A stretch of 44,234 nt of DNA from Kagunavirus NRG857CP3, in sequence record OZ035734.1. The stretch is one strand, 5' to 3'. Of the stretch, positions 1-36,400 are shown piece after piece. The translations under genes were made by a program, and so were the position numbers. A model generated the notes under the pieces. The model saw only the letters and a program-made list of their open reading frames with translations. It made no database searches and was not told the origin of the DNA. Positions within the stretch are counted from its first letter, which is position 1; each line of letters starts with the position of its first letter.

Positions 1-29
1 GTCACAACGAACATGGGTGAGGTTGAGGA

Positions 30-1280
30 ATGAGTATTCAGTTATCCGCCCCACAGGCGCTGTTCCTGAACTGCGAGAACAAATACAAGGCCTATGTCGG
101 CGGCTTCGGCAGCGGTAAGACGTTTGTTGGTTGTCTCGACCTGCTTACGTTCATGCTTAAGCACCCCGGTACGCGCCTCGGTTACTTCGGCCCTACCTAC
201 CCGGCTATCCGTGACATCTTCTACCCTACGTTCGAGGAAGCGGCCAACCTACTTGGTCTCGATGTACTAGTTAAATCCGGTGACAAAGAGGTAGTCGTTA
301 CGCGGGGCAAGACGGTAATCGGTACAGTAATTTGTCGCTCGATGGATAACCCAGGCTCTATCGTCGGTTTCAAAATCGCTGCTGCGGTTGTGGATGAACT
401 GGACGTACTGAGCCGCGAGAAAGCGGAACTGGCGTGGAACAAAATCGTAGCCCGTATGCGTCTGGTTATCCCCGGTGTGGTGAACCACATCTCCGTTACC
501 ACGACACCGGAAGGGTTCAAGTTCGTCTTTTCTAAGTTCAAAGATAACCCGACACCGAGTTACTCTATGGTTCAGGCCTCGACTCACGAGAACGCCAGGT
601 TCCTGCCGCCGGATTACATTAGCTCCTTAACCGAGACGTACCCGGCACAGTTGATTAACGCGTATCTGAACGGGGAGTTCGTTAATCTGACATCCGGCAG
701 CGTCTACTACGCTTACGACCGCCGTAAGCACCGTAGCAAAGAGACAATCGAACCTGGCGACACGCTGTACATCGGCCAGGACTTCAACGTTACTAAGAAC
801 GCCAGCGCCGTGTATGTGCAACGCCCGAACGGCTGGCATGCGGTAGCGGAACTGAAAGGCCTGTTCGATACGCCGGACACCGTGAGAGTTATTACAGAGA
901 AGTGGAAGTCGCAGGGCCACCGCATCGTCGTGTACCCGGACGCCAGCGGCAAGAACCGCAAGACCAACTCGGCGTCGATCTCTGACATCGCCTTACTCCA
1001 GCAGGCCGGTTTCGATGTACGGGCTAAATCCGCCAACCCTCCGGTTAAGGACCGTGTTTTAGCAGTGAATAACGCGCTGGAAAAAGGTAAGCTGTGGGTT
1101 AACGACCACTTATGCCCTGAGATAGCCAAGACGCTGGAGCAACAGGCGTACGACGACAACGGCGAGCCAGCTAAAGACGGCATCATCGACCATATGGCGG
1201 ATGCGCTTGGCTATCCTGTAGTTTACGAGATGCCGGTGGTTAAACCAGTAATCAATATCCCGGTGACTTTCGCACTTTAA
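30..1280 (+). CDS. terL: terminase large subunit
   Basis: Walker A-like GGFGSGKT near N-terminus; nuclease-type acidic motifs downstream; directly precedes portal gene; RBS GAGG upstream. Confidence 0.85.
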   Translation: MSIQLSAPQALFLNCENKYKAYVGGFGSGKTFVGCLDLLTFMLKHPGTRLGYFGPTYPAIRDIFYPTFEEAANLLGLDVLVKSGDKEVVVTRGKTVIGTVICRSMDNPGSIVGFKIAAAVVDELDVLSREKAELAWNKIVARMRLVIPGVVNHISVTTTPEGFKFVFSKFKDNPTPSYSMVQASTHENARFLPPDYISSLTETYPAQLINAYLNGEFVNLTSGSVYYAYDRRKHRSKETIEPGDTLYIGQDFNVTKNASAVYVQRPNGWHAVAELKGLFDTPDTVRVITEKWKSQGHRIVVYPDASGKNRKTNSASISDIALLQQAGFDVRAKSANPPVKDRVLAVNNALEKGKLWVNDHLCPEIAKTLEQQAYDDNGEPAKDGIIDHMADALGYPVVYEMPVVKPVINIPVTFAL

Positions 1281-1292
1281 GAGGATTATTCA

Positions 1293-2774
1293 ATGTTAAC
1301 TATGAACGGTCAGAATCAGGGTGTTAAGACAAAACACCGGGAATGGCTGCATCACTTTGATAAATGGCAGAAGGTACGCCACGCGCTGGAAGGCGACCTT
1401 ATCCGCTACCTGCGCAACGTCGGGAAGAACGAACCGGACCCAACTTACGCGGCCCAGCGCCAGGATGAATACGAGAACGGCGCCATCTGCTACAACTTCA
1501 CCAAGCGCACCCTGTCGGGTATGGTTGGCTCAGTGATGCGCAAAGACCCTGAGCAGATTATTCCACCTGAACTGGAGTACCTGTTACGCAATGCCGACGG
1601 TTCCGGTGTTGGCCTGTGGCAGCACGCACAGGACACGCTGATGGAGATTGACTCGGTAGGCCGTGGCGGGTTGCTGGTGGACGCACCAGAAACAGCCGCA
1701 GCAACGGCGGCAGAGCAGAACGCGGGGTTATTAAACCCGGTCATCGCATTCTATACCGCAGAGAACATCATCAACTGGCGACTCACTCGCGTAGGGTCTG
1801 TTAACCGCGTTACGATGGTAGTGTTGCGCGAGGTATGGGAATATTCAGAACCCGGTGCTGAGTTTGAAACAAAGTTTGGTGAACAATATCGCGTCCTCGA
1901 CCTGATTGACGGGCGCTACCGCCAGCGCATATACCGCTTCGATGCGGAAGGTGGCGCGCAAGATGACGTAATCGAAATCTTCCCGGAACTGGGCGAACAG
2001 TTGCGCGGTAAAATCCCGTTCACGTTTATTGGCGCGAGCAATAACGATGCAACCGTCGATGACGCACCTTTGCTGCCGCTGGCAGAACTCAATATCGGGC
2101 ATTTCCGCAACAGTGCAGACAATGAGGAATCAAGTTTTGTAGTAGGCCAGCCGACTTTGTTCATCGCCCTCGGTGATAACATGAGCATGGAGCAGTGGAA
2201 AGAGGCCAACCCTCATGGTGTGCGCATGGGTTCACGTTCAGGCCACAACATTGGCTACGGCGGCAACGCGTTTCTGGTCCAGGCGGGAGAAAATAACCTG
2301 GCTAAACAGAACATGCTGGACAAGGAGAATCAGGCCATCCAGATTGGCGCGCAGCTTATCACACCTACACAGCAAATCACCGCTGAATCTGCCCGCCTGC
2401 AACGCGGCGCTGACACGTCCGTAATGGCGACTATCGCGCGTAACGTAAGCATGGCGTACACAGAAGCGTTGCGTTGGGTAGCAGCTATGCTTGGGCTACG
2501 CGAAGGCACGGAGATTGAGTTCAAGCTGAACATGGAGTTCTTCCTGCAACCGATGACCGCTCAGGACCGTGCGCAGTGGATGGCTGATATTAACGCAGGT
2601 TTACTACCCGCGACTGCTTACTACGCCGCGTTGCGTAAGGCCGGGGTAACTGACTGGACCGACGAAGAGATTACAACGGCTATTGAGGACGCACCTGTGC
2701 CGTTAGGTGCGGTTACTCAGGTAACTGGTGAGATTCCGCAGTCGGCACAACAGCAGGACGCCACCCAGCAATAA
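1293..2774 (+). CDS. portal protein
   Basis: 493 aa ORF immediately after terL, typical size and position; acidic Q-rich C-terminus. Confidence 0.75.
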   Translation: MLTMNGQNQGVKTKHREWLHHFDKWQKVRHALEGDLIRYLRNVGKNEPDPTYAAQRQDEYENGAICYNFTKRTLSGMVGSVMRKDPEQIIPPELEYLLRNADGSGVGLWQHAQDTLMEIDSVGRGGLLVDAPETAAATAAEQNAGLLNPVIAFYTAENIINWRLTRVGSVNRVTMVVLREVWEYSEPGAEFETKFGEQYRVLDLIDGRYRQRIYRFDAEGGAQDDVIEIFPELGEQLRGKIPFTFIGASNNDATVDDAPLLPLAELNIGHFRNSADNEESSFVVGQPTLFIALGDNMSMEQWKEANPHGVRMGSRSGHNIGYGGNAFLVQAGENNLAKQNMLDKENQAIQIGAQLITPTQQITAESARLQRGADTSVMATIARNVSMAYTEALRWVAAMLGLREGTEIEFKLNMEFFLQPMTAQDRAQWMADINAGLLPATAYYAALRKAGVTDWTDEEITTAIEDAPVPLGAVTQVTGEIPQSAQQQDATQQ

Positions 2775-2807
2775 AACTAAGGCCCCATAGGGGCCTTAGT
2801 TTTATTT
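2774..2807. terminator. bidirectional intrinsic terminator (palindrome AAACTAAGGCCCC-ATA-GGGGCCTTAGTTT)
   Basis: GC stem with A/T runs on both sides, between convergent portal (+) and moron (-). Confidence 0.7.
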
Positions 2808-3323
2808 AAATCGTACGGGCATTAGCACCATAAATGCTGAGTTTGAAAATGATATTTTGCATCCGCTGGTTTGATCCTGGAAATCGAAACGAGCAATTAC
2901 ATTTTTGTATGCCTTAGAAATCTTGTACGCGTCCGCTAAATACTGCATAGTGAATCCTATACTATCAACCACTCCTGGTGAGATGGACGCTATGCGCCTC
3001 CAGTCAGGAAAGTTTCCGTTTACAACATCTACCGGAAGTGTACATATAAGAGTACGACTATCGTCATAGAAAGAAACACTGCCGTTGGTGTGGTCCACCT
3101 CCGCGTAGTTAAATTTAGAAGGTTCTCTACCTTTGATGTCTATGAGAATCCCCTTCTCAACGTTTGTCTTCACATTGTCGCAGAACAACCTATGACCATC
3201 AGCAGAAACTATCAATCCTTCGGGGTCTATGTAAAAAGCATTCAAATAGTAGCGCACATCATTTTTAGCCCTGCAGATTTTCGCCCCTACATACGCAGGG
3301 AAAGTAATAACTGTAGTAATCAT
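2802..3323 (-). CDS. hypothetical protein (AT-rich moron, opposite strand inside structural module)
   Basis: 173 aa ORF on minus strand with own promoter-leader element and terminator; visibly lower GC than flanking genes. Confidence 0.55.
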   Translation of the reverse strand: MITTVITFPAYVGAKICRAKNDVRYYLNAFYIDPEGLIVSADGHRLFCDNVKTNVEKGILIDIKGREPSKFNYAEVDHTNGSVSFYDDSRTLICTLPVDVVNGNFPDWRRIASISPGVVDSIGFTMQYLADAYKISKAYKNVIARFDFQDQTSGCKISFSNSAFMVLMPVRFK

Positions 3324-3350
3324 TTTATGCCTCCTGTTTAATTTAACTGA

Positions 3351-3380
3351 ATAGTACCCTATTATATTGGTGTCTGCAAA
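3351..3380 (-). promoter_or_regulatory. sigma70-like promoter (TTGCAG-N17-TACTAT on minus strand) for moron 2802..3323
   Basis: Copy of conserved element CCAATATAATAGGGTACTATTC shared with promoters at 5237 and 14735. Confidence 0.5.
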
Positions 3381-3423
3381 TATTATTTTTATGCGTTACA
3401 CTGGCGATACTACAGGAGGGCCT

Positions 3424-4467
3424 ATGAGCTTACTAACTTCATTAATCAGCCACCAGATTTGGCTGCAGCGTACAGCATCCGGTGAAGTGAAAGACCTCGC
3501 ACCATTCATTCAGGAGATGCGTGATGAAATCAAACGGCAGGTGCTGCTATTTGGTGACGACGGGCGAAGCACCGCGCGGCTGAATAAACTGTTACGCGAC
3601 CTTGAAGACGCACTGACGGGGCTAACTGGCGACTGGCAAACGAAGCTGACAGAAGACCTTAAGGAGCTTGCAGCGTATGAGGCTGAGTGGAATGCGAAGA
3701 CACTCACGGCTAACGTTAATGCGGAATTTGTTACCCCGACCGCTGAACAGGTGTGGTCCGCCGCCGTGTTTCAACCACTGGCGATAAGCGAAAAGCCCGT
3801 TGACTTCACGAAGCTTATGGAAGGCTGGGGTGAAACGGAAGTAGCGCGCCTCGTTACCGGCGTTAAGATGGGCTTCGTGCAGGGCCAGACAACACGACAG
3901 ATTATCAAGAGCGTTGTTGGCAACGGTGGGCTATCGGATAAATCCGCCAACAACGCCGCCGTTGTAATCCGCACCGCTCTTTCGCACGTATCTAACGAAG
4001 CCCGCAACGAGACTTACAGGCAGAACAGCGACATCATCGAGAAATACGAGTGGGTGTCCACGCTTGACAGCCGTACCAGCACAATCTGCAAGGCCAGAGA
4101 CGGCATGACATGGGAAATCGGTAAAGGACCTATGCCGCCAGCCCATCCGAACTGCAGAAGTACCACTGCACCTGTAATCAGTTCAGAGTTCGACTTCCTC
4201 GACGCGGGCGCAAAACGTGCGGCTAAAGGCGCCGACGGTGGAACACAGGTTAGCGCGGATACCACTTACTACGAATTCCTGAAACAACAACCAGCGTGGT
4301 TTCAGGACCAGGCGTTAGGTCCGGTGCGGGGTAAGATTTTCCGCAACAGCGGTATATCACCAGAAGAGTTTCGCGTAATATCTGTAGATGGTTTCGGGAA
4401 TCCGCTCACGCTCAAGCAGATGGCGGAACTCGATAAACGTGTTGCTGATTATCTGAAAGGGGAATAA
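3424..4467 (+). CDS. head morphogenesis / minor capsid protein (SPP1 gp7 / Mu F-like placement)
   Basis: Position after portal; start chosen at ATG preceded by GGAGGG RBS (ORF track start 3367). Confidence 0.55.
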   Translation: MSLLTSLISHQIWLQRTASGEVKDLAPFIQEMRDEIKRQVLLFGDDGRSTARLNKLLRDLEDALTGLTGDWQTKLTEDLKELAAYEAEWNAKTLTANVNAEFVTPTAEQVWSAAVFQPLAISEKPVDFTKLMEGWGETEVARLVTGVKMGFVQGQTTRQIIKSVVGNGGLSDKSANNAAVVIRTALSHVSNEARNETYRQNSDIIEKYEWVSTLDSRTSTICKARDGMTWEIGKGPMPPAHPNCRSTTAPVISSEFDFLDAGAKRAAKGADGGTQVSADTTYYEFLKQQPAWFQDQALGPVRGKIFRNSGISPEEFRVISVDGFGNPLTLKQMAELDKRVADYLKGE

Positions 4468-4928
4468 TGATGGGCTTTTTCAAAGTAACTGATGTACCGT
4501 CGCGTCGCGTAGTCCAGTACGCCCGCGTGTCTGTCTCTGGCGAGAACGTGGTATTTATCGAAGACGAAAGTGTACTCGGTACACCAGTAGACGATATGCC
4601 GTTTGCGGATAAAACTGGCATTGCGCTGCCGGCGGCAGGTATGCTTTATGAGATTCCGTATCTGGCGGACGCTGGCGACGTATATTTCTCGGTGCAACCG
4701 CAGGACGCTGAACTGGCAGACGGCAGCGCAACTATCACGGTCGAAGTTAAGGCTGGCAAAGCACCATATGTGCTGACTTGGTACAAAGACGGTAAGGAAG
4801 TAGTAAACGCCCCGGAAGAGGCCTTGTCTCTGACGGTTAACGCAGTCGGTGAATACTTCGTTAAAGTTACTGATGCCGATGGTGTAGAGGCTGTTAGTAA
4901 AGCGGCGAAGGTTATTAAGCCTGAATAA
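4467..4928 (+). CDS. Ig-like domain structural protein (possible decoration protein)
   Basis: C-terminal motif YVLTWYKDGKEV typical of Ig-like I-set/Big domains; start overlaps upstream stop (TAATG). Confidence 0.45.
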   Translation: MMGFFKVTDVPSRRVVQYARVSVSGENVVFIEDESVLGTPVDDMPFADKTGIALPAAGMLYEIPYLADAGDVYFSVQPQDAELADGSATITVEVKAGKAPYVLTWYKDGKEVVNAPEEALSLTVNAVGEYFVKVTDADGVEAVSKAAKVIKPE

Positions 4929-4958
4929 ACTAAGGCCCCGAAAGGGGCCTTAGTTTCA
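4927..4958. terminator. bidirectional intrinsic terminator (AAACTAAGGCCCC-GAAA-GGGGCCTTAGTTT)
   Basis: Perfect palindrome, same family as 2774, 12279, 25044. Confidence 0.7.
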
Positions 4959-5207
4959 ATACCCAGTCTCTTGGGTTAAGTTAATCTCTTTATTCCAGAC
5001 GTTTCGGTCATACTTTTCACGAATCTGGCGCATACTTCTACCGAGCGCGGCGGATATAGACATATCCCCGTCTTCTTGCGCGTCCAGTTGCATCTGCTGA
5101 AGCTCAATATACGCCGAAATATCGCCGCGTAATTCGGCCTGTTCATACTCTTTTTTAAGAAAAGAACCAAGGTCCTGTACACGATGTTTTGCTGGTTTCG
5201 TAATCAT
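4956..5207 (-). CDS. hypothetical protein (moron)
   Basis: 83 aa minus-strand ORF with own promoter-leader and terminator; RBS GAGGAG. Confidence 0.5.
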   Translation of the reverse strand: MITKPAKHRVQDLGSFLKKEYEQAELRGDISAYIELQQMQLDAQEDGDMSISAALGRSMRQIREKYDRNVWNKEINLTQETGY

Positions 5208-5236
5208 TTCTTCTCTCCTCTTGTTGGTGTGAATGA

Positions 5237-5265
5237 ATAGTACCCTATTATATTGGGGTGTGCAA
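5237..5265 (-). promoter_or_regulatory. sigma70-like promoter (TTGCAC-N17-TACTAT, minus strand) with conserved leader ACACCAACAA
   Basis: Near-identical to elements at 3351 and 14735. Confidence 0.55.
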
Positions 5266-5287
5266 ACTATTTGTTTACGTATTCCAG

Positions 5288-5333
5288 TTATTCCACCGAA
5301 TTGTAAATGTTGGAATAAACTATTCGAATAGTT
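5288..5333. promoter_or_regulatory. inverted repeat TTATTCCA-N15-TGGAATAA followed by perfect 16-bp palindrome AACTATTCGAATAGTT overlapping the -35 box
   Basis: Read directly from sequence; half-site AATAG/CTATT shared with promoter-spacer palindromes elsewhere. Confidence 0.5.
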
Positions 5334-5360
5334 GACTTTTCACTAAAAATATGCTAAGCT
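5332..5360 (+). promoter_or_regulatory. sigma70 promoter TTGACT-N17-TAAGCT with extended -10 TG
   Basis: Paralogous to promoter at 36064 (identical -35, spacer pattern and -10). Confidence 0.6.
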
Positions 5361-5567
5361 CCACCTGAGCTTGTGAAGTATGAACAAGCGACCGCGGCGC
5401 GGGCAGGTAACGGAGCGGGACGTAAGTCCTGAGTGTAGTTACGCCGACGCGTTCGGAAGGGCCATACTATATTGCTTGTGTAAAAAGTAACTGGTTTACT
5501 GGGATTACGCCGTTTCTATGTTTAAATGATAAGGACTAGCGCCCCGCTTTATGGCGGGGCTTTACTT
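5361..5567 (+). ncRNA. candidate structured leader RNA / small RNA, copy 1
   Basis: About 105 nt core roughly 75 percent identical to copy at 36093; conserved hairpin GCTTGT..ACAAGC; ends at terminator 5538..5567. Confidence 0.35.
5538..5567 (+). terminator. intrinsic terminator (GCCCCGC-TTTATG-GCGGGGC + TTTACTT)
   Basis: GC stem plus U-rich tail just upstream of spanin gene. Confidence 0.55.
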
Positions 5568-5584
5568 ATCTAGAAAGGAGAAAC

Positions 5585-5971
5585 ATGAATCTTAAAGCAA
5601 CTGTCGTAGCGGGAGCATGTTTCATCATCCTTGCTTACGCACACGGCATCTACCAGTATCGCAGCGGCTGGAACGAAGGCCGGGCGAATCTCGTTTCGCA
5701 GCAACAGCAGAAAGCACAGGCTGAGTTAGCGAAGAAAACACAACGGCAGCAGCAAGATGAATCAAAGGCCGCAGCCGCTGACAACGAAGGCAAGACGAAA
5801 TCAGAGGTAATTACCCGTGAAGTCGTTAAGTACATTAAAACGCCTGGCCGCAGCGTGTGCACTTTCGACGATGCTCGCGTCCTGCTCAAGTCCCGCGCCG
5901 TCGCAAACGCCAATTCCATCCCCGGATACGACGATGATGCAACCACCGTGCAAACTGGCACCGCCAAGTAG
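5585..5971 (+). CDS. i-spanin (Rz-like)
   Basis: N-terminal TM helix, Q/K-rich coiled-coil periplasmic region; contains embedded out-of-frame lipoprotein ORF. Confidence 0.5.
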   Translation: MNLKATVVAGACFIILAYAHGIYQYRSGWNEGRANLVSQQQQKAQAELAKKTQRQQQDESKAAAADNEGKTKSEVITREVVKYIKTPGRSVCTFDDARVLLKSRAVANANSIPGYDDDATTVQTGTAK

Positions 5972-6080
5972 CGACGCTGACGAGGATTTAGCTATCGACG
6001 TTCAGAACGCCGAATGTGTACGGCAACTGAGGCTGAAAGTGTTCATGTTGCAGGATTACGTGAGGAATATTCTGGAATAG
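5817..6080 (+). CDS. o-spanin (Rz1-like outer membrane lipoprotein), overlapped architecture
   Basis: Signal peptide with lipobox LASC, proline-rich mature region; starts inside Rz-like ORF in another frame (GTG start). Confidence 0.45.
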   Translation: MKSLSTLKRLAAACALSTMLASCSSPAPSQTPIPSPDTTMMQPPCKLAPPSSDADEDLAIDVQNAECVRQLRLKVFMLQDYVRNILE

Positions 6081-6162
6081 TTGCCTTGCGTGTTGGAATA
6101 ATTTATTCTTGACATGTAAATCCGGGTGGCCCGGGTTCCAACGTCCAGGGGACATACTGACT

Positions 6163-6867
6163 ATGAATCGTTTTTTACGTTATCCGTTCCAGGAAGAAGC
6201 TGGGGCAGAAGATAAATCTGGCGGCGGTGCCGCGCCGAAAATGTTCACAGCCGAAGAAGTTCAGGCGCTGATTGAGAAAGAAGTAGCCGGGCTTAAGGCC
6301 AATCAGGAAGCATTGCTGGCGGAGAAGAAAGAAGCCGCTCGTAAAGCAAAAGAAGCCGAAGAAGAACGGCAGCGCGCACACCAGGAGGCGTTAAAAGCTG
6401 CTGGTAAGATGGACGAGTTCGAAAAAACGATTCGTAGCCAGTATGACCCGGTGTTAGCCGAGAAAGATGGTCGCATCTCCAAAATGGCAGAGCGCATCCT
6501 CGGTAGCGAACGTAAAGCAGTGTTAGGTTCTTTCGCGGGGGACTTCATTACCCCGGAAGCAGTGGACATTCTTGCCCCGTTCGTTAAGACTGAGTTTGAA
6601 GGTGATGATGTGGTTACTAAGTTTGTCGGCGCAGACGGCAACGTAATCACGACTGACCCTGAACAGTTCCGCAAATACCTGCGTGAACACAAAGCGTTTT
6701 CGCATTTGATTAAAGCAAATGCAGCTTCCGGCGGCGGGGCTTCCGGTAGCAAAGGCGGCGGGGCCGCACCAGCGTTTAAAGACATGAGTGAAGCGGAGCG
6801 TATTGCTCTGTACGAATCGAACCCTGCCGAATTTGAACGGCAACTTAAAGCCCTGAGGAAAAAATAA
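6163..6867 (+). CDS. scaffolding protein
   Basis: Coiled-coil, A/E/K-rich protein directly upstream of and overlapping the capsid gene (TAATG); ORF track gives TTG start at 6109. Confidence 0.55.
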   Translation: MNRFLRYPFQEEAGAEDKSGGGAAPKMFTAEEVQALIEKEVAGLKANQEALLAEKKEAARKAKEAEEERQRAHQEALKAAGKMDEFEKTIRSQYDPVLAEKDGRISKMAERILGSERKAVLGSFAGDFITPEAVDILAPFVKTEFEGDDVVTKFVGADGNVITTDPEQFRKYLREHKAFSHLIKANAASGGGASGSKGGGAAPAFKDMSEAERIALYESNPAEFERQLKALRKK

Positions 6868-7916
6868 TGGCAATTACTACTATCGGCGATATCGTAACTG
6901 GTAAAGAATCGGTAATCCTGTCCTACATGACAGAGGACCCGGTAGAGAAAACCGCGTTCTTCCAGTCCGGTATCCTTACCCCGACTCCGTACGCCGCCGC
7001 TATCGCAAACGGCCCGTCCAACAAAGCTGTTCTGCCGTACTGGAAAGCGATTGATACCTCTATCGAACCGAACTATTCGAACGATGTGTATCAGGATGTC
7101 GCCACCCCACGTAACGTGCAAACCGGTGAGATGGATGTTCGCGTGGCTTATCTGAACGAAGGTTTCGGCCAGGCGGATTTGACTGTTGAACTGACCAGCC
7201 AGAACCCGCTGCAATCCGTAGCGTCCCGTCTGGATAACTTCTGGCAGCGTCAGGCACAACGCCGTCTGATTGCCACCGCCCTCGGCCTGTATAACGACAA
7301 CGTAACGGCAACCGATGCTTACCACGAGCGGAACGACATGGTTATCGACGTGTCCGCAACTCTGGGCTTCGATTCTGGTGCGTTCATTGACGCTACCCAA
7401 ACCATGGGTGACGCGCTGATGGGTAATGGTGGTGAAGTGCTGGGGGCAATCGCGATGCATAGCTTCGTGTATGCACAGGCGCGTAAGCAACAGCTTATCG
7501 ACTTCATCCGCGATGCCGACAACAACACCATGTTTGCTACTTACCAGGGCTACCGCGTGATTGTTGACGACAGCATGACCGTAGTTGGTACTGGCTCCAG
7601 CCGTAAGTTCATCTCCATCATCTTCGGCAACGGCGCTATCGGTTATGGCGAAGGCAATCCGTCTAATCCACTGGAATACGAGCGCGAAGCATCTCGCGGC
7701 AACGGCGGTGGCGTCGAAACCCTGTGGACCCGTAAGACCTGGTTGCTGCATCCGCTGGGTTACAGCTTCACCAGCGCGGTAATCACCGGTAACGGTACTG
7801 AAACCGTAGCCCGCTCTGCTTCCTGGCAGGACCTGGCGAACGCCTCCAACTGGAACCGCGTTGTTGATCGTAAGCATGTACCGATTGCCTTCCTGGTAAC
7901 TGGTGTAGGGGCTTAA
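6867..7916 (+). CDS. major capsid protein
   Basis: 349 aa, follows scaffold with overlapping stop/start, followed by strong terminator. Confidence 0.75.
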   Translation: MAITTIGDIVTGKESVILSYMTEDPVEKTAFFQSGILTPTPYAAAIANGPSNKAVLPYWKAIDTSIEPNYSNDVYQDVATPRNVQTGEMDVRVAYLNEGFGQADLTVELTSQNPLQSVASRLDNFWQRQAQRRLIATALGLYNDNVTATDAYHERNDMVIDVSATLGFDSGAFIDATQTMGDALMGNGGEVLGAIAMHSFVYAQARKQQLIDFIRDADNNTMFATYQGYRVIVDDSMTVVGTGSSRKFISIIFGNGAIGYGEGNPSNPLEYEREASRGNGGGVETLWTRKTWLLHPLGYSFTSAVITGNGTETVARSASWQDLANASNWNRVVDRKHVPIAFLVTGVGA

Positions 7917-7931
7917 GGTTAAGTTATAATC

Positions 7932-7960
7932 GAGAGGGACTTCGGTCCCTCTTTTCATTT
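7932..7960 (+). terminator. intrinsic terminator (GAGAGGGAC-TTCG-GTCCCTC + TTTTCATTT)
   Basis: GC stem-loop with U tract right after capsid gene. Confidence 0.7.
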
Positions 7961-7975
7961 ACTAAGAGGTAAATT

Positions 7976-8230
7976 ATGGCTAAGACCGGAAAGGGCTTAC
8001 CGCGCAGCCTTGAGAACACCGATTTCAGCAGTGTTGTGCCAGAAGCAACGGCAGAAACCGCTGGACTGGTTAAGAAAGGCGCTGCGGTAACGAACATCGG
8101 ATCACAGACCGTTACTGGCGAAGACGCCGCTGCCGTGGCTACGTCCGCGCAGACCGCGGTTAACGCAGTAGGTACTAAATTGAACGCACTTCTGGCGCAA
8201 CTTCGCGCCGCTGGCGTAATTGAATCGTAA
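7976..8230 (+). CDS. hypothetical protein (A/T/V-rich, structural region)
   Basis: 84 aa ORF with AGAGG RBS. Confidence 0.4.
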   Translation: MAKTGKGLPRSLENTDFSSVVPEATAETAGLVKKGAAVTNIGSQTVTGEDAAAVATSAQTAVNAVGTKLNALLAQLRAAGVIES

Positions 8231-8242
8231 AGGAGATTTAAC

Positions 8243-8593
8243 ATGGTTGATGTAATCAAGCGTCGCACCACCGGTGTAACTGACGACGGTCCGGCCGACG
8301 GTCAACTGGAAATCGACATGGTGAACATTTCACCTGCGTCTTTTTCTACCGCTTTGGCTGCCACTACGGCAGTAACCGCCGGGCAGACTATGACCCTGAC
8401 CGTAGTCGTTACTGGTGGTCTGGCACCGTACTCCTACCAGTGGTACAAAGATAACAACGCTATCGCTGGCGCAAACGCTGCTTCTTATGCGAAGGCGTCC
8501 ACTACTACCGCAGATTCAGGCACGTATAAAGTGGTTGTTCACGATGTGTATGGTAATATTATCTCCAGCAGCACTGTAGCAACTGTGTCTTAA
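8243..8593 (+). CDS. Ig-like domain protein (possible capsid or tail decoration)
   Basis: Motif YSYQWYKDNNAIAG, same Ig-like signature as 4467..4928. Confidence 0.45.
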   Translation: MVDVIKRRTTGVTDDGPADGQLEIDMVNISPASFSTALAATTAVTAGQTMTLTVVVTGGLAPYSYQWYKDNNAIAGANAASYAKASTTTADSGTYKVVVHDVYGNIISSSTVATVS

Positions 8594-8629
8594 TACAACG
8601 GCCCTTCGGGGCCGTAATAAGGAAAGGTC

Positions 8630-8809
8630 ATGGCAGATAATTATGTAATCCGCGAAAAGTACACCCACGTTGATATGGTTGATGGTCAGGTGATGCCAGT
8701 GCGCGGTGTTGTAGATGCGGATGAGCTTGTAGCAACGCAACCGGATAACGAAGAAGCGCTCAACAACGGCGGTGGTACTAAACGTCGTCGCCGTAAGTCA
8801 GAGGAATAA
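8630..8809 (+). CDS. small hypothetical protein (59 aa, basic C-terminus KRRRRK)
   Basis: ATG preceded by AAGGAAAGG; below ORF-track size cutoff; found by reading. Confidence 0.3.
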   Translation: MADNYVIREKYTHVDMVDGQVMPVRGVVDADELVATQPDNEEALNNGGGTKRRRRKSEE

Positions 8810-8812
8810 CTT

Positions 8813-9325
8813 ATGCCGCTAATCGTGGAAACGGGAGAAATCGTCCCTAATGCTGACAGTTACGTTAGCCTGGCTGACGCCCGCGCGTTAGCGGCTAATT
8901 ATGGTCTGGAGCTGCCGGAAGACGATACCGCCGCCGAAGTAGCCTTGCGCAACGGTGCTACTTATGTCGGGCTTGCAGAGCCGCAGATGTGCGGTCGCCG
9001 CGTATCTGCTGAACAGTCTCTTGCATACCCCCGCACAGGCGTAACGTTAAACGGATTCCCCGTAGCTAACAACGTCATCCCGAAGCAGGTGATTCTTGCG
9101 CAGGTAATCGCCGCTGCTACATATGGCGCAGGTACTGAGGTGCGGGCTAACTCAGATGGTCGCTCTGTGCAGACCGAGCGTGTTGAGGGTGCAGTAACCG
9201 TGACGTACTTCAACAACGGCAGCAGTGGTGCTACGACCGCGATTACCGCTGCGGACGACGCCTTACGCCCGTTACTGTGCGGCGGTCTTAACAATGGCTT
9301 CTCGTTTAACGTGTACCGGGGTTAA
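8813..9325 (+). CDS. putative head-tail connector / adaptor protein
   Basis: Position between capsid and tail genes only. Confidence 0.35.
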   Translation: MPLIVETGEIVPNADSYVSLADARALAANYGLELPEDDTAAEVALRNGATYVGLAEPQMCGRRVSAEQSLAYPRTGVTLNGFPVANNVIPKQVILAQVIAAATYGAGTEVRANSDGRSVQTERVEGAVTVTYFNNGSSGATTAITAADDALRPLLCGGLNNGFSFNVYRG

Positions 9326-9327
9326 AA

Positions 9328-9942
9328 ATGGCGAAGACTAAAACAGAGATGTTTACCCTTATTGGGGCAAATCTCCCGGACAACACCACCGGAGCTATTA
9401 CACCTGCGAAGCTACGCGAGGTAATGACTCAGATGGCGGACTCACCTATTTACGCCACTCCCGGTGTTAAAGAGGTTGAAGTTCTCCGTGCCGCGTCAAC
9501 CGTGGTACAAGCGCCTACCGCAGTAGATACAGCATTGCAGTTAACTTTCGGCTCTGCTCAGGGAAGCGTATCTGACCCGGTAATGATTAATGCGGCGGGG
9601 CTGGTTACGTTCAACACTGCGGGTAACTATGCCGTTCGCATCAAGTTACAGGCCGGGCGCACTGGGGCAAGCGGCACGTCTATTTTGTTATCACGCATTC
9701 TGGTAAACGGTGCTCAGTACGGCTCACCGGCAGCTACGAAACTGGTAAGTGCCGACACCACAATCCCGATTGAGTCTCGCGTTGTTATTAACCCGACCGC
9801 GGGCCAGACGTTTGCCGTTCAGATTATGCGAGATAGCGCCGGAAGCAACTTCGGCGGCGTATACCCGCAAGCGGCTACCGTAACTGCATGGGGCACAGCA
9901 CCGTCGGCGCTACTGGTTATCTCGAGACTGGAGGCCGCGTGA
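9328..9942 (+). CDS. structural protein (head-tail joining region)
   Basis: Gene order, tight coupling. Confidence 0.35.
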   Translation: MAKTKTEMFTLIGANLPDNTTGAITPAKLREVMTQMADSPIYATPGVKEVEVLRAASTVVQAPTAVDTALQLTFGSAQGSVSDPVMINAAGLVTFNTAGNYAVRIKLQAGRTGASGTSILLSRILVNGAQYGSPAATKLVSADTTIPIESRVVINPTAGQTFAVQIMRDSAGSNFGGVYPQAATVTAWGTAPSALLVISRLEAA

Positions 9943-10301
9943 TGGGCACAGCTTTCAGCAAACGTATGCAAGGCGTGGGTACACGCCTGCTAACCAAATT
10001 CGGCAGCACGGTATCTCTGGTTCGCGCTGGCTCGAAAGTATGGGATGAGGTTCTCGGTGAGTTCGTCTGGTCTGACGATGAAGTGTTGCCGTTGAAGGCC
10101 GTCCCGGTTCCGGTAAACGCGGGACTGGTAAACGGTACGACGATTCAGGCTGGCGACATGATTGTTAAAGCGGATTGTAGTGTAGTTCCGAAGATGGAAG
10201 ACAAGGTGCAATTCGGCGGCGAGCAATGGTCTGTCATAGCTATTGAGAAGAAGATGGTTAATGATGATGTCGTGGCCTACTTTATTCAGGTGAGAAAATG
10301 A
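9942..10301 (+). CDS. structural protein (head-tail joining region)
   Basis: Start at ATG after GGAGG RBS (ORF track 9888); gene order. Confidence 0.35.
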   Translation: MGTAFSKRMQGVGTRLLTKFGSTVSLVRAGSKVWDEVLGEFVWSDDEVLPLKAVPVPVNAGLVNGTTIQAGDMIVKADCSVVPKMEDKVQFGGEQWSVIAIEKKMVNDDVVAYFIQVRK

Positions 10302-10696
10302 GTTTCGCGCTTGATGTCTCTAAGTTCGTGGAAAAGGCGAAGAAGAACCCTGAGAAGGTGATACGCCAGGTGTCTATCAAGCTGTTTTCCGCTATTATAA
10401 AGGCGACGCCAGTTGATACTGGTCGTGCTAGAAACAACTGGTTTGCGTCGGGCAGTACTCCGTCGCAGGAGACTACCACCTACGGCGCACCGCAAGGAAC
10501 CGCTACTATCCAGCGCGCTATCGCGGTTATAAATACCGCTACAGACTGGAGCGAGTTCACACTTACTAACAACCTGCCATATATACAGCGGTTGGAGTAC
10601 GGCCATTGGTCGAAACAGGCCCCACAAGGCATGGTCAGGATAAATGTGTCCCGCTTCCAGCAACTCATTAACGAAGAAGCCAACAAGGTGAAATGA
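10298..10696 (+). CDS. structural protein (possible head closure / tail completion)
   Basis: Overlapping stop/start (ATGA), gene order. Confidence 0.35.
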   Translation: MSFALDVSKFVEKAKKNPEKVIRQVSIKLFSAIIKATPVDTGRARNNWFASGSTPSQETTTYGAPQGTATIQRAIAVINTATDWSEFTLTNNLPYIQRLEYGHWSKQAPQGMVRINVSRFQQLINEEANKVK

Positions 10697-11109
10697 TGGG
10701 CTACTTTGAGGACTTAACCAAAGCGTTCGATGTGCCGCTGGTAGCCTTCGGAGCCACCAACAACATCAAGGTCGCGCTTGAAAACATTGACGCGCCGACG
10801 TCAACCGATACGCCGTATCTGGCAAGTTACATGTTACTTGCGGATACCGAGCAGGCGGATTTGTTCTTCACGGAACAACGCTCTGGTGTTTATCAGGTCG
10901 ACATTAACTACGCATCGGTGAAAGGTAGCGCGCCAATCAATAAAATGGCAGACTTACTTAACACGGCGTTTAAAGCAGGTAAGTCATTTTCACGTAACGA
11001 CATCTGCGCCGAGGTTCAATCGGTAAGCCTGGGGCCGCTGATTGTAGAAAACGGATGGGCCAAACGACCATTGTCAATTAACTTTATTGCATTCACCAAG
11101 AGGCTGTGA
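10693..11109 (+). CDS. structural protein (possible tail completion)
   Basis: Overlapping stop/start, gene order. Confidence 0.35.
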   Translation: MMGYFEDLTKAFDVPLVAFGATNNIKVALENIDAPTSTDTPYLASYMLLADTEQADLFFTEQRSGVYQVDINYASVKGSAPINKMADLLNTAFKAGKSFSRNDICAEVQSVSLGPLIVENGWAKRPLSINFIAFTKRL

Positions 11110-12278
11110 ATATGGCTACAACTCCTTTTAAGGGCGCGAATACCGCGCAATTCTATGTTGCGGAAACTACCCCGGGCGTAACCCCAGACAACCCTGTCTG
11201 GTCGCCGTTGCGTAACACGGGTGGCGTCCCTGCTATTACCCGCGACACGCTGACATCCAACGAGCTGGACGGCAGCCGTGAAACTACGTCCATCCGCACC
11301 GGTAACAAACAGGTTAGCGGGGAATATGCTATTGAGCTTAGCTCGAAAAGCCAGGATGACTGGTTGGCAGGTGCCTTAGGCTCTACATGGCAATCCGGTG
11401 TTTCTCTGTCCGGGCTGTCGATTACCGTCGCGCCTGCAGGTAAGACGTTCACCCGTGCTGATGGCAGCTTTATTACCGACGGCGTTGAAGTTGGCGACCT
11501 GATTGCGTTTACCGACTTAACCGGCGATAACGCAAAACCGTTTATCGTAACCGGGGTAAGTGCGACTGTTGTCACCGGTGCAGGTATTCAGCACACTCTC
11601 ACCACTGAGACGGTAACTACCGCAGCTAAGACCGGCGACAAACTGGAAACTGGTAGCCAGTGTAAAACGTTCTCTATTCTCACCTGGTACAAAGGCCAGT
11701 GCGGCGGGACTGACGCGTACGCACTAACCAAAGGCGTGGAAGTTTCTGGTTTTACCGTCGAGCAGGCCGTTAACGCGATGGTAACGGGCAGCTTCCCGTT
11801 CATCGGGCGCAGCCAGGAGATTCTCACCGAGCCGCCGTCTGGTTCTGATTTCTCCTCTGTTACGTTTGGTGACGAGCCATTCTCTTCGGTTGACGTTTCT
11901 GTGTTCGACGGTTCCACGCCGTTGCGTTGCGATAGCCTGACTATCACCAACGATAACAGCGCGTCTGCGCAGTTCGAACTCGGCAACACTAACGTGGCAT
12001 TTGTGGAGCGTAGCCGCGCGGCTAATACCTTCTCCATCTCCGGTAAGCTGTACGACATGGCTATGATTCAGAAGTTTATCAACGAGCAGCAGGTAGAGAT
12101 TAACTCTATTCTGGCGGGGGTAAACGGGGCTATGTCTTTCAGCCTGAAACGCGCGGAACTAACGGCGGTTACACCAGAGATTGGAGGACCTGAGTCAATC
12201 ACTCAGTCTATTGAGGGTCAGGCTACAGGCAACCAGTACCAGTCGTCTATCGTAATTCAACGTATCACCTACGCATAA
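11106..12278 (+). CDS. major tail protein (putative)
   Basis: 390 aa T/S/G-rich protein located upstream of chaperone pair and tape measure. Confidence 0.5.
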   Translation: MNMATTPFKGANTAQFYVAETTPGVTPDNPVWSPLRNTGGVPAITRDTLTSNELDGSRETTSIRTGNKQVSGEYAIELSSKSQDDWLAGALGSTWQSGVSLSGLSITVAPAGKTFTRADGSFITDGVEVGDLIAFTDLTGDNAKPFIVTGVSATVVTGAGIQHTLTTETVTTAAKTGDKLETGSQCKTFSILTWYKGQCGGTDAYALTKGVEVSGFTVEQAVNAMVTGSFPFIGRSQEILTEPPSGSDFSSVTFGDEPFSSVDVSVFDGSTPLRCDSLTITNDNSASAQFELGNTNVAFVERSRAANTFSISGKLYDMAMIQKFINEQQVEINSILAGVNGAMSFSLKRAELTAVTPEIGGPESITQSIEGQATGNQYQSSIVIQRITYA

Positions 12279-12308
12279 AACTAAGGCCCCAAACGGGGCC
12301 TTTTTCTT
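12279..12308. terminator. bidirectional intrinsic terminator (AACTAAGGCCCC-AAAC-GGGGCC-TTTTTCTT)
   Basis: Same palindromic family; between major tail gene (+) and island (-). Confidence 0.7.
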
Positions 12309-12861
12309 ACAAACCTAATTTTAAAGCAATGTCTACAACGTTCGATTTAACATCACCTGGTATGATGTATGTGTCGTAATCTTTTACACCGATAACATCA
12401 TACAGATACTCCCTGCTATCGCCGATGAACGTATAACCGTCCCGGTGCAAGCGAACAATTCGCACGTCATGCCCCGCGGCGACGATAGGGGCTACTTCGC
12501 TGGCGAACCCGCCATCGGACACTACAAAAACTTCGTCGCCGTCTGGCAAGTTTTCAGCAAGATACTTACCGAAATAATCATCGCCGAATACCGGTTTAAT
12601 GAACTGTTCAGAGATAGCAATCATGAATTGACGGCGAGACAAGCCATTAAGGAAACATTCTGGCTTTTCTTTCCGCGCTCGGTCGTCGTAGCCGTCGAGA
12701 AATTCGTGGTAAGCATCCGGGCCTAACGCGGCCAGAGCAATATTGAACATTGGATTCTTGAAACTGGTAGTTCCCTTCGCAAAGCCCATCTCTACCAGCG
12801 CCCTAGCAAGCGTGTCTTTCCCGCAACCCGCAGGGCCATTAAGAATAATTACCTTAGCCAT
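12307..12861 (-). CDS. P-loop nucleotide kinase, dNMP kinase-like
   Basis: Walker A GPAGCGKDT at N-terminus; later block FVVSDGGF...GHDVRIVRLHRDG resembles T4 gene 1 dNMP kinase pattern (recalled, not searched). Confidence 0.6.
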   Translation of the reverse strand: MAKVIILNGPAGCGKDTLARALVEMGFAKGTTSFKNPMFNIALAALGPDAYHEFLDGYDDRARKEKPECFLNGLSRRQFMIAISEQFIKPVFGDDYFGKYLAENLPDGDEVFVVSDGGFASEVAPIVAAGHDVRIVRLHRDGYTFIGDSREYLYDVIGVKDYDTYIIPGDVKSNVVDIALKLGL

Positions 12862-13346
12862 TATTTATCGCTCCCGTGTGATTTTAAGTGTGTAGAGTTC
12901 CCATTACAGTCGTATTCAGTAACCGCGTGAGTGGTTATACCGAGTCCGCGGAAATGCTTTATTACCGCCGGAGAGTCGTCGAACGCACACAAGATTCTTT
13001 CCAGCCCGATAGCGCGCAACACTTCTTCTTTAATTACAATGTCTTTTCTGTTGTCGTGTTTGCTGCGCATGATTAGCTGATAAAATTCGACGCGGTGGCG
13101 CTGCAACCACATTCTGGTTTCTTTTTCTGCGTCATCACTGCGGCCGGTTAAAATAATAACGGCATAGCGACGATTAAGGGCGTTACACAGTTCGATGTTA
13201 TCTTTAATCGGCGCATCATCTTTGCACGCCATGTTAAAGGGCTTCCATGCCCATGTTTCGTTGTAGTTATCTTTCGGCAACAGGTGTAAGCGATGCGTAC
13301 CGTCTGCTAATGTTCCATCTAAATCGAAAATAACAATATCTTTCAT
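12861..13346 (-). CDS. HAD-superfamily phosphatase, polynucleotide kinase 3'-phosphatase-like
   Basis: N-terminal DLDGTLA (DxDGT) motif, TGR, NRKDIVIKEEV and AFDDSP blocks resembling T4 Pnk phosphatase domain (recalled). Confidence 0.65.
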   Translation of the reverse strand: MKDIVIFDLDGTLADGTHRLHLLPKDNYNETWAWKPFNMACKDDAPIKDNIELCNALNRRYAVIILTGRSDDAEKETRMWLQRHRVEFYQLIMRSKHDNRKDIVIKEEVLRAIGLERILCAFDDSPAVIKHFRGLGITTHAVTEYDCNGNSTHLKSHGSDK

Positions 13347-14473: not shown

Positions 14474-14511
14474 GCTTACTTCCTCGTGTTTAGGATTTGT
14501 CTTATAGTAGC

Positions 14512-14703
14512 CTACTTCTCTTTCACGTTCGAGTTGCAAGCCCAGATTAAAATGAATACCCACGGCAACAGAACCCACCCTAGAAATAAGTTAGCCATGA
14601 ATATCGCCAGCTTTGCTTTATGGTTACGGAAGTAGGCAACTAAAAAAGGCGCAAAGTACGCGAGCAGTGCAAACAGGATTAAGGAAATCGGTAAACTGGA
14701 CAT
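14512..14703 (-). CDS. small membrane protein (two predicted TM helices)
   Basis: 63 aa hydrophobic ORF, first gene of island transcript, RBS GAAGGGG. Confidence 0.45.
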   Translation of the reverse strand: MSSLPISLILFALLAYFAPFLVAYFRNHKAKLAIFMANLFLGWVLLPWVFILIWACNSNVKEK

Positions 14704-14734
14704 TTTAAAACCCCTTCATTGTTGGTGTAAGCGA

Positions 14735-14763
14735 ATAGTACGCTATTATATTGGGGTGCGCAA
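14735..14763 (-). promoter_or_regulatory. sigma70-like promoter (TTGCGC-N17-TACTAT, minus strand) with conserved leader ACACCAACAA driving the island
   Basis: Third copy of conserved promoter-leader element. Confidence 0.55.
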
Positions 14764-14870
14764 GTAGTGTGTTAGAATAATTTTGCGCCTAGTGTCGCAC
14801 ACGAAAAGCGGGTGGTTCCCGTCTGGCGCATTTCCTTTAACCAGTAACCTCTTAACCAAAGGATTAAAGA

Positions 14871-35791: not shown

Positions 35792-35958
35792 TTCACATTC
35801 TCCTTAACCCACGCTTCTACTTTATTTCGGTCAAACGTACCCGGCATACGGCGGCCCATTACTTTAACGCTGCAATCAGGAAACTTCCCGCTTTTAATCC
35901 AGTTATTTATTGTCTGGCGAGTAACTCCGATTAATTCTGCTACTTCATTTATAGTCAT
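35788..35958 (-). CDS. small HTH DNA-binding protein (AlpA/excisionase-like fold)
   Basis: MTINEVAELIGVTRQTINNWIKSGKFP; start set at ATG after AGGAGA RBS (ORF track 36048). Confidence 0.5.
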   Translation of the reverse strand: MTINEVAELIGVTRQTINNWIKSGKFPDCSVKVMGRRMPGTFDRNKVEAWVKENVK

Positions 35959-36063: not shown

Positions 36064-36092
36064 TTGACTTTTACTTAAAAATATGCTAAGCT
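36064..36092 (+). promoter_or_regulatory. sigma70 promoter TTGACT-N17-TAAGCT with extended -10 TG (paralog of 5332)
   Basis: Near-identical to promoter at 5332..5360. Confidence 0.6.
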
Positions 36093-36335
36093 TCACTGAG
36101 CTTGTGAGATATCGCAAGCGACCGCGGAGCGGCAGGGAACGCAACGCGTGCCATTAGGCACTTGAGTGTAGTTCCGCTGGCGCTTTCGGAAAGGCCAAAG
36201 TCTATTGTTAATCCCGCCTAAATACCCAAGTCACTGATAATTAAAAGTTTCTATAGTTGCCGTAAGCAAGGTAGAGAGTACTTCACTCCGCTGGGGTGGG
36301 CTAACGCCCACCCACTGCGTTGCGTACTCTTTTAA
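36093..36335 (+). ncRNA. candidate structured leader RNA / small RNA, copy 2
   Basis: Core about 75 percent identical to copy 1 with conserved blocks CTGAGCTTGTGA, CAAGCGACCGCGG, TGAGTGTAGTT, TTCGGAA, GGCCA; followed by GC hairpin GGGGTGGGC-TAAC-GCCCACCC. Confidence 0.35.
36291..36335 (+). terminator. GC hairpin with distal U tract (weak terminator)
   Basis: Stem GGGGTGGGC/GCCCACCC; T run 16 nt downstream. Confidence 0.3.
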
Positions 36336-36371: not shown

Positions 36372-36400
36372 TTGCACACCCCAACATAATAGTATACTAT
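36372..36400 (+). promoter_or_regulatory. sigma70-like promoter TTGCAC-N17-TACTAT with spacer palindrome AATAGTATACTATT
   Basis: Same architecture as minus-strand morons' promoters; leader AAACGAGACAGAGGAG. Confidence 0.55.

Follow-up and report, generated by a model that had tools for sequence, protein, structure and literature searches.

Genomic Setting of the Two Copies

The genome of Kagunavirus NRG857CP3 (sequence record OZ035734.1) carries, upstream of its spanin, scaffold and capsid genes, a promoter directly followed by a structured leader RNA and a terminator-like hairpin, and the core of this leader occurs a second time in the window, i.e., the whole stretch of 44,234 nucleotides (nt) analysed here. 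Both copies stand at the head of long rightward operons. According to the annotation of related phages, copy 1 (the late slot) is flanked by a Hoc-like head gene on one side and by the genes for the i-spanin, the o-spanin, the scaffold and the major capsid protein on the other side, as its label in the preliminary description of the locus correctly stated. Copy 2 (the early slot) occupies a divergent control region, in which a leftward gene for an excisionase-type helix-turn-helix (HTH) protein is opposed to a rightward operon comprising small early genes, holins, endolysin and terminase. At the Pfam thresholds, this protein is assigned to HTH_17 (E = 7e-10), without any Phage_AlpA match; most of the small phage proteins are unannotated. 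Identities of 90-99% with the region 5200-5600 are found in 182 phage records, corresponding to Escherichia Kagunavirus and some Salmonella phages, all of them Guernseyvirinae.

With a covariance model run with the filters off, exactly two copies are recognized in the window, at 5361-5480 (E ~1e-32) and 36092-36213 (E ~1e-28), the third-best match reaching only E = 1. When aligned, the regions of copy 1 and copy 2 share 78% mean column identity. The recurrence of the core near 36093, which had been noticed from the letters alone, is thus borne out, and so is the view of paralogous structured RNAs that each possess their own promoter at the head of an operon. The features of both loci are collected in Table 1.

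Table 1. Features of the two leader loci in the window (coordinates of the 44,234-nt stretch; sequences of RNA elements are given as RNA).
Feature	Position	Strand	Sequence and remarks
Perfect palindrome, candidate operator or activator site	5318..5333	.	AACTATTCGAATAGTT; centre at about -41.5 from the predicted start
Promoter, copy 1	5332..5360	+	-35 TTGACT 5332-5337, -10 TAAGCT 5355-5360; predicted start G5367 or A5368
P1, copy 1	5369..5389	+	GCUUGU-GAAGUAUGA-ACAAGC; from folding
Stem II, copy 1	5392..5456	+	From folds and covariation
Single-stranded tail and conserved block, copy 1	5457..5479	+	
Leader terminator, copy 1 (predicted)	5541..5570	+	GCCCCGCU-UUAU-GGCGGGGC then UUUACUUAUC; ends 15 nt before the i-spanin ATG
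i-spanin gene, first of the operon	5585..5971	+	From the list of open reading frames; o-spanin, scaffold and major capsid protein come next (relatives' annotation)
HTH_17 (excisionase-like) gene	35788-35958	-	Divergent from the copy 2 promoter
Promoter, copy 2	36064..36092	+	TTGACT-N17(TGC)-TAAGCT; predicted start 36098-36100
P1, copy 2	36100..36119	+	GCUUGUGA-GAUA-UCGCAAGC; from folding
Stem II, copy 2	36122..36189	+	P2b GGAGCG/CGCUUU, P3 CAG-GGAAC/GUUCC-G-CUG, P4 GUGCC-AUUA-GGCAC; from fold and covariation
Tail and conserved block, copy 2	36190..36207	+	AAAGGCC and CTATTG; G36207 lies 18 nt after stem II
Terminator-like hairpin, copy 2	36276..36333	+	GAGUAC...GGGGUGGGC-UAAC-GCCCACCC...GUACUC then UUUU; pairing probability 0.89
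Second promoter-like site	36372..36400	+	TTGCAC-N17-TACTAT, member of the CCCCAAYATAATAGNNTACTATT motif; placed after the copy 2 leader and before the first early open reading frame (ATG 36436)

Promoters and Upstream Palindrome

Each copy of the RNA is fused to a near-identical promoter. The strong TTGACT-N17-TAAGCT promoter previously proposed for copy 1 is present at its place, with an A/T-rich spacer of 17 nt ending in TGC, the TG of the extended -10 being located at 5352-5353. The corresponding 29-nt pattern TTGACTTTT-N3-TAAAAATATGCTAAGCT occurs in the window only at 5332 and 36064, with 0 occurrences expected (100 shuffles). In the 61 distinct homologous contexts used for the promoter and context statistics, the -35 box reads TTGACT (51 contexts), TAGACT (7), TAGATT (2) or TCGACT (1), the spacer always measures 17 nt, and the -10 box is either TAAGCT or TACGCT. 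Because the TG is invariant while the following base varies freely (C36, A11, G8, T6), the promoter is assigned to the extended -10 type; it displays the sequence features of a sigma-70 extended -10 promoter and is accordingly referred to as a predicted promoter. The distance separating promoter and element is constant in 61/61 contexts, which suggests that promoter and RNA behave as a single unit. Judging from the promoter geometry, P1, the first hairpin of the RNA, would start some 2-3 nt past the transcription start.

The palindrome AACTATTCGAATAGTT, correctly described as overlapping the -35 box of copy 1, is kept upstream of the late-slot promoter in the Kagunavirus contexts and is absent from the early-slot copy. 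The position of its centre, at about -41.5, is classically that of a class II activator. In the Jerseyviruses, another and imperfect inverted repeat, TACTTTAT-TC-AAAAAGTA, takes the place of the palindrome, and the palindrome half-site ACTATTC is also found in the repeated motif CCCCAAYATAATAGNNTACTATT considered at the end of this text. An additional inverted repeat, AAGCTC-CACCT-GAGCTT at 5356-5372, encompasses the -10 box and the beginning of the predicted transcript. Jerseyvirus shows a direct repeat instead, its -10 hexamer TACGCT recurring in P1, where it forms the 5' arm (TACGCT-ACC-TACGCT); changes in the -10 sequence and in P1 seem to go together.

Architecture of the Leader RNA

Both copies share a common fold, that of a conserved two-hairpin RNA of ~95 nt consisting of the hairpin P1, a linker of 1-2 nt, an irregular stem II of 65-68 nt, an invariant tail and a YTATTG block. 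The first hairpin is preserved between the copies, as had been pointed out, with GCTTGT/ACAAGC at 5369-5389 facing GCTTGTGA/TCGCAAGC at 36100-36119 and a changed loop, and it takes the form ACGCU/AGCGU in Jerseyvirus. The second stem-loop (5392-5456 and 36122-36189), of which the preliminary description made no mention, holds most of the conservation and covariation. In copy 1, its lower part is built up from P2a (CCG/CGG), a bulged C, P2b (GGCGCG/CGCGUU) and P3 (CAG-GUAAC/GUUAC-G-CUG), and its upper part from an asymmetric internal loop (GGAG/AGUGUA) surmounted by P4 (CGGGAC-GUAA-GUCCUG, 5416-5431). Across the homologues, P2b follows the consensus GGNGCG/CGCN'UU with two invariant G-U pairs, P3 is variable, and the internal loop corresponds to G[G/C/A]A[G/A]C on the 5' strand and AG[U/C]G[U/A][A/G] on the 3' strand.

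The invariant sequence GGAAGGGCC, at 5455-5463 in copy 1, overlaps the 3' end of stem II. Further downstream, G5474 closes the YTATTG block at a distance of 18 nt past stem II, and in 58/61 contexts the G of the block keeps exactly this spacing. Tail and block form the sole segment of the core query with a BLAST match in most Jerseyvirus records. The conserved unpaired blocks of the RNA are GAGUGUAG, GGAAGGGCC and YTATTG. A closing helix between a CCU of the leader and an AGG of the tail, which appears in several minimum-energy folds, was rejected, the CCU being probably located upstream of the transcription start and type B, one of the variants of the element, lacking the pairing.

Evidence for a Conserved RNA Structure

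The covariance check across homologues, which had been named beforehand, supports a real RNA structure. The variant sample comprised 24 distinct stem II sequences and ~52 distinct full elements, distributed among ~five types from viral and metagenome contigs. In the model-fitted alignment of the 24 distinct sequences, 88.6% of the pair cells are standard pairs, compared with 82.2% in shuffled alignments (0/500 reach the observed value) and 32-48% when the partners are slid by 1-3 columns. Nine pairs are changed on both sides, and the covariation score amounts to 0.204 vs 0.101 after shuffling (0/500). As an example, the pair 39-98 of P2b occurs as CG (10 sequences), UA (10) or AU (3), and is never unpaired. 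Indels misalign P3 and P4 in the model-fitted alignment, from which RNAalifold recovers P1 and P2 only; because of this blurring, P4 was counted separately on equal-length 16-mers. In twelve variants, all 6/6 pairs of the P4 apex exhibit compensatory double changes and 95.8% of the cells are paired, vs 63% after shuffling and at most 48% after sliding, without any invariant column, these counts being subject to the caveat that the 16-nt windows were picked by position. In phage Jersey, the internal loop between P2b and P3 is closed by Watson-Crick pairs, resulting in a continuous 12-bp helix.

The structure is attributed to the RNA of the + strand rather than to the DNA, because the invariant G-U pairs would give C-A mismatches on the other strand. 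The fold of copy 2 reaches -49.3 kcal/mol with z = -4.5. Invariant bases cluster at the junction of P1 and stem II, in the lower part of stem II and in the tail, and the distal helices and loops vary freely.

The leader had been described as devoid of any open reading frame (ORF) and ribosome-binding site. This needs correction as to the ORF, since one of 36 codons occurs at 5380-5490 and is annotated in some GenBank relatives; it has no Shine-Dalgarno sequence. A conserved micro-protein, which had been envisaged as the outcome opposed to an RNA element, is not encoded here and was rejected as a candidate: besides the missing Shine-Dalgarno sequence, the ATG is absent from 16/61 contexts, lengths of anything between 9 and 41 codons are seen elsewhere, and the P4 loop, within the region of the ORF, is subject to single-base indels. 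The "hypothetical protein" drawn over the element in GenBank, e.g., Bas70_0007, KE1_005, CPT_Shashou_007 and N271_gp08 (36 amino acids, 63 in Jersey), is probably a mis-annotation.

Downstream Hairpins and Predicted Terminators

In both copies, the tail and the YTATTG block are followed, 75-85 nt further on, by a terminator-like hairpin, and in the late-slot leaders it starts at a fixed distance of 75 nt beyond the tail. The intrinsic terminator previously placed at the end of the copy 1 leader is well recognizable: the hairpin 5541-5560 contains 8 pairs, 7 of them G-C, is followed by TTTACTTATC, and ranks as the best terminator-like site in 1-15000. With its G+C-rich hairpin and U tract it has the sequence features of an intrinsic terminator and is considered as a predicted one. 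Transcripts terminated at the leader hairpins would have their 3' ends at about 5561-5570 (copy 1) and 36330-36334 (copy 2). Its stem covaries among the relatives (CCCCGC/GCGGGG, CCCTGC/GCAGGG, CCCAGC/GCTGGG). The long irregular hairpin 36276-36333 of copy 2 is kept in early-slot contexts, with the exception of the type-C early leaders, in which a GGUGCC-UUCG-GGCACC hairpin occurs in its place. In four contigs with the latter hairpin (L151, L139, L003 and L002), a variable-number (CTCA)n tandem repeat precedes it, ~120 nt after the core in the early slot. Altogether, four hairpins unrelated to one another are found downstream of one and the same core. In full-length folds, the terminator hairpins show a pairing probability of 0.75-0.92 without any competing pairing with the core.

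Additional terminator-like sites of the + strand occur within the two operons at 7932-7953, 12283-12302 and 37475-37496. The site at 7932-7953, GAGAGGGAC-UUCG-GUCCCUCUU followed by UUCAUUU, directly follows the major capsid gene and precedes ATG 7977 by 23 nt, and the site at 12283-12302, after the tail tube gene, is bidirectional. No promoter-like site is listed between the leader and the genes beyond the capsid terminator (7932-7953).

Distribution in Guernseyvirinae

The late leader was found in 182 records for the Kagunavirus type and 269 records for the Jerseyvirus type. Set against the ~461 reference records possessing a capsid protein of at least 80% identity, these counts indicate that the late-slot copy is near-universal in Guernseyvirinae (~451/461). 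The core query hits 409 places in 367 records, the listed records with two places being of the Kagunavirus type, from which it follows that the second copy occurs in a minority of the records only. In contig L153, a core of the early-slot type occupies the late slot, which points to exchangeable cores.

All significant matches (E ~1e-14 or better) correspond to the same element on contigs of the Guernseyvirinae type, which measure ~41-45 kb when full-length. The wider search consisted of two pattern scans of viral contigs and one of metagenome contigs, followed by the covariance model, and the other pattern matches of these viral and metagenome scans obtained no covariance-model score. Similarly, no match to the element was found in Escherichia coli genomes, nor in Pseudomonas phage Almagne (L209) and Providencia phage Kokobel2 (L210), the nearest capsid relatives outside Guernseyvirinae. 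In both latter phages, the genes for head morphogenesis, scaffold and capsid adjoin one another without an intergenic gap, and the block made of terminator, promoter, leader RNA and spanins looks like a subfamily-specific insertion. The search for capsid-protein homologues returned only proteins of at least 87% identity, i.e., close relatives rather than distant ones.

Rfam 15 recognizes no family at either copy (whole window, gathering score) and nothing overlapping the core at E up to 10 (copy 1 region). In the literature consulted, no paper linking Guernseyvirinae to such an RNA was found, and the single RNA-seq study devoted to a Kagunavirus covered annotated genes only (PMC12645636).

A Possible Cis-Acting Antitermination Leader

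The reading which we tentatively favour, and which we would call plausible rather than probable, is that of a cis-acting antitermination leader, similar in layout but not homologous to the put RNAs of phage HK022. The polymerase starting at the promoter of the module would make P1 and stem II first, and the folded RNA would stay with the same elongation complex by means of the invariant nucleotides of the junction, the lower stem and the tail, possibly with the assistance of a host or phage cofactor. The complex modified in this way would resist the leader terminator and the later terminators of the operon, in a processive antitermination of the HK022 put type, in which the RNA suppresses downstream terminators in cis without phage proteins and is blocked by mutations of the beta' zinc-binding domain of RNA polymerase (e.g., Y75N in rpoC). 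The YTATTG block, 18 nt past stem II, might correspond to a pause, during which the RNA would be able to fold. RNA-polymerase contact, read-through and terminator activity are all parts of the proposal that we infer from the sequence. A more specific claim, namely that the element represents a second class of such RNAs, without evolutionary relationship to the first, which attach to the polymerase transcribing them and, in no need of a phage protein, render it resistant to terminators, is rather doubtful.

The HK022 put RNAs are two paralogues located after two promoters, putL starting from +3, each folded into two adjacent stems, with a pause 21 nt after stem II in putL (PMC9378689). The likeness to the leaders described here is manifold: paralogous RNAs, two in number here, immediately past two operon promoters; a pair of neighbouring stem-loops interrupted by bulges and internal loops, although in different proportions; a start at +3 for putL and at about +2 to +3 for P1; terminators further downstream; a conserved site ~18 nt after stem II, compared with the pause at 21 nt in putL; and a transcription entirely performed by the host polymerase. 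The differences include the invariant single-stranded tail of the element and the nature of the phages, virulent Guernseyvirinae here and temperate lambdoid phages in the case of put.

Other arguments come from the arrangement of the module itself. No promoter-like site occurs between the leader hairpin of copy 1 and the i-spanin ATG located 15 nt downstream, and therefore the transcription that reaches the spanin, scaffold and capsid genes must cross the hairpin. The constant fusion of the RNA to a promoter which is found nowhere else in the window would fit a requirement in cis. In the same manner, conservation concentrated at the junction, lower stem and tail, together with freely varying distal parts, fits the recognition of a fixed and highly conserved partner, and this pattern, in an RNA that would always be made by a polymerase facing terminators, is what a cis-acting, polymerase-modifying RNA could be expected to look like. 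The covarying + strand structure, the exchange of cores in L153, the compensatory changes in the leader hairpin, and the place of both copies ahead of long operons with further terminator-like sites speak on the same side. Moreover, no recognised Q or N antiterminator appears in the inspected annotations of the relatives.

Several observations weigh against this proposal. HK022 putL and putR share no sequence or structure similarity with the element. When the nun-cI-cro region of HK022 was scanned with the covariance model R1 (filters off), the best match, located outside both put sites, reached 7.1 bits only (E = 0.44); for this comparison putL and putR were reconstructed from the HK022 genome and their numbering was checked against the published one (PMC9378689). 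The Rfam negative says nothing about put, a family that is missing from Rfam (HK022 control). The proportions also differ, with ~95 nt, a short P1 and a very long stem II, compared with ~70 nt for put. Copy 1 taken alone shows a modest folding score (z = -1.6). K1H and Jerseyvirus have no copy 2 and possess other structured leaders in the early slot. At copy 2 of the window, the promoter-like site 36372-36400 stands between the leader and the first ORF (ATG 36436), so that read-through is not strictly needed there. In Jerseyvirus, P1 would be partly cut off at the canonical start spacing, and the downstream hairpin is followed by only UU, meaning that a true terminator is not universal. Terminators located after capsid genes are common in phages devoid of antitermination, and a constitutive antiterminator placed directly before a terminator would have no obvious regulatory logic. 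Since the homology test failed, membership of the put family is not claimed, and the element is best considered as a candidate for an undescribed RNA family, put-like in layout. The early proposals of a put-like RNA, attenuator, riboswitch or small RNA have thus met with different fates: the layout does match put, no similarity to putL or putR was found, and the attenuator and the riboswitch are disfavoured.

Alternative Readings

An RNA acting in trans deserves consideration, since a strong promoter and a stable hairpin at the 3' end could enable each copy to deliver a small RNA of ~200 nt (copy 1) or ~235 nt (copy 2), unless the core of ~100 nt is cut out after the tail. Such an RNA might be a regulator, or else a decoy that captures a protein of the host or of the phage, on the model of the lambda 6S RNA or StxS, the latter offering a precedent by its production through early termination at PR' (PMC7547250). 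The separate promoter-like site after copy 2 could then serve the genes, and the RNA does possess conserved unpaired blocks (GAGUGUAG, GGAAGGGCC and YTATTG). A short terminated RNA is indeed a likely product, by analogy with the lambda 6S and StxS leaders. As the main role of the element, a small RNA is nevertheless unlikely: no complement to the conserved unpaired blocks occurs in the phage apart from the antisense of the copies themselves, the U tracts are short or absent, unlike a Hfq-type 3' end, the late slot has no other promoter for the spanin-to-capsid genes and would need substantial read-through, and an action in trans requires no strict fusion to a promoter. The same lambda layout can also be read in terms of a protein-dependent antitermination, either with a nut-like loading site or with a DNA-loaded factor, similar to Q or AlpA, that targets the leader terminator and would give it a temporal role. 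A strong promoter, a non-coding leader of ~200 nt and an intrinsic terminator located before lysis and structural genes are common to the lambda PR'-6S-tR' region, to StxS and to copy 1, and the AlpA targets of Pseudomonas aeruginosa share this organization, with a leader terminator just before the first gene of a lysis-related operon and, elsewhere in the genome, a gene for a small winged-HTH protein from the excisionase superfamily (PMC7969949). The excisionase-type HTH protein encoded beside copy 2 and the palindrome covering the -35 box of copy 1 would find their place in such a scheme. However, this HTH protein belongs to HTH_17 and not to Phage_AlpA (Pfam thresholds), copy 2 has no palindrome, and the element to which AlpA binds lies between -35 and -10 and is associated with no conserved RNA. 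In lambda, the loading of Q takes place at a DNA site and involves a sigma-dependent pause, and the leader has no such conserved structure, whereas the conserved part here is the leader RNA itself and no Q or N homologue occurs in the inspected annotations; neither the Q nor the AlpA system needs a conserved RNA structure. The lambda nut sites resemble the present leaders, as proposed here, in being RNA signals just past two promoters that act in cis on the polymerase, but boxB, a hairpin of 15 nt, binds N and has a conserved loop, while the P1 and P4 loops differ between types and vary freely, and no boxA-like block was seen in the element. A protein-dependent mechanism appears quite improbable.

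A role in RNA processing or stability would see stem II as an RNase III-type site, or the whole structure as a protection of the 5' end against 5'-end-dependent decay, the A/U-rich block after stem II being a conceivable RNase E site. The early RNase III sites of phage T7 are irregular hairpins with lower and upper stems around an asymmetric internal loop, located between genes. Stem II, with ~23 stacked pairs, an irregular shape and an asymmetric 4-by-6 internal loop, has a similar appearance, and like the T7 sites it belongs to a non-coding part of an operon transcript; in addition, the structure begins a few nt from the predicted 5' end, and a second hairpin is positioned just 5' of the spanin ribosome-binding site. 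In contrast to the intergenic T7 sites, the element is fused to a predicted transcription start, and this fixed coupling to one promoter type is left unexplained by processing. The invariance of the lower stem and tail exceeds the needs of RNase III or of a generic 5' stabiliser, and conservation peaks in the single-stranded tail, which leaves this reading with a small probability. Were the element a riboswitch or attenuator, the binding of a ligand or factor to the core would decide on the formation of the terminator, which would account for a structured domain with conserved unpaired bases upstream of a terminator. Such a role is very improbable, considering that the terminator stands ~75 nt or more past the core, that four unrelated hairpins follow the same core, that no mutually exclusive pairing was found in the full-length folds (terminator probability 0.75-0.92), and that no riboswitch of Rfam, up to E = 10, matches the copy 1 region.

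Whatever its function, the element represents a so far undescribed structured RNA, very well conserved, at the head of the capsid operon of phages that are widely used in therapy and biocontrol work. To our knowledge, RNA-only processive antitermination is restricted to one small group of lambdoid phages. Should the antitermination reading hold, a whole subfamily of virulent phages of Escherichia coli and Salmonella would drive its structural operon, and some members also their early-right operon, in this manner, representing the first put-like system outside the temperate lambdoid phages. With ~450 sequenced virulent phages concerned, RNA-only antitermination would have evolved more than once, a second RNA-polymerase complex would become available for structural comparison with the put complex, and the compact cassette of promoter and leader might be used for terminator-proof expression.

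Other Leaders and Promoters

In phages without copy 2, the early slot is occupied by unrelated structured leaders that follow a consensus early promoter, as in K1H (L004, 34910-35050) and in Salmonella phage Ent2 (L005, 37572-37700). They have in common a hairpin loop CCUAA(A) and covarying stems (GCCCCGC/GCGGGGC vs UUCCGC/GCGGAA), match no Rfam family, and the Ent2 leader folds with z = -3.9. Their resemblance, and that of the CCCCGC/GCGGGG terminator stem of the late slot, to a type I-E repeat suggested a mimic of CRISPR repeats acting as an anti-CRISPR; this candidate was rejected, as the Rfam scans of both alternative leaders, at the hairpins concerned, and of the copy 1 region gave no CRISPR-repeat match and the terminator stem varies among relatives.

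The motif CCCCAAYATAATAGNNTACTATT occurs four times in the window vs 0 expected, at 3350-3372 (-), 5236-5258 (-), 14734-14756 (-) and 36379-36401 (+). It is promoter-like (TTGCAC-N17-TACTAT) and contains the inverted repeat AATAG-N4-CTATT. It fits the "phage promoter" consensus published for Kagunavirus fBC-Eco01 (PMC9825357), although these phages encode no RNA polymerase.

The only Rfam match of the window is an int-alpA RNA at 14782-14846 (+), with 36.6 bits for a gathering score of 35.8. It starts at the predicted +1 of an extended -10 promoter, TTGGGG-N16(TGT)-TAGAAT, and heads the operon of the tail-assembly chaperone and tape-measure genes (ATG 14872), which makes the latter a third rightward operon with a structured 5' leader.

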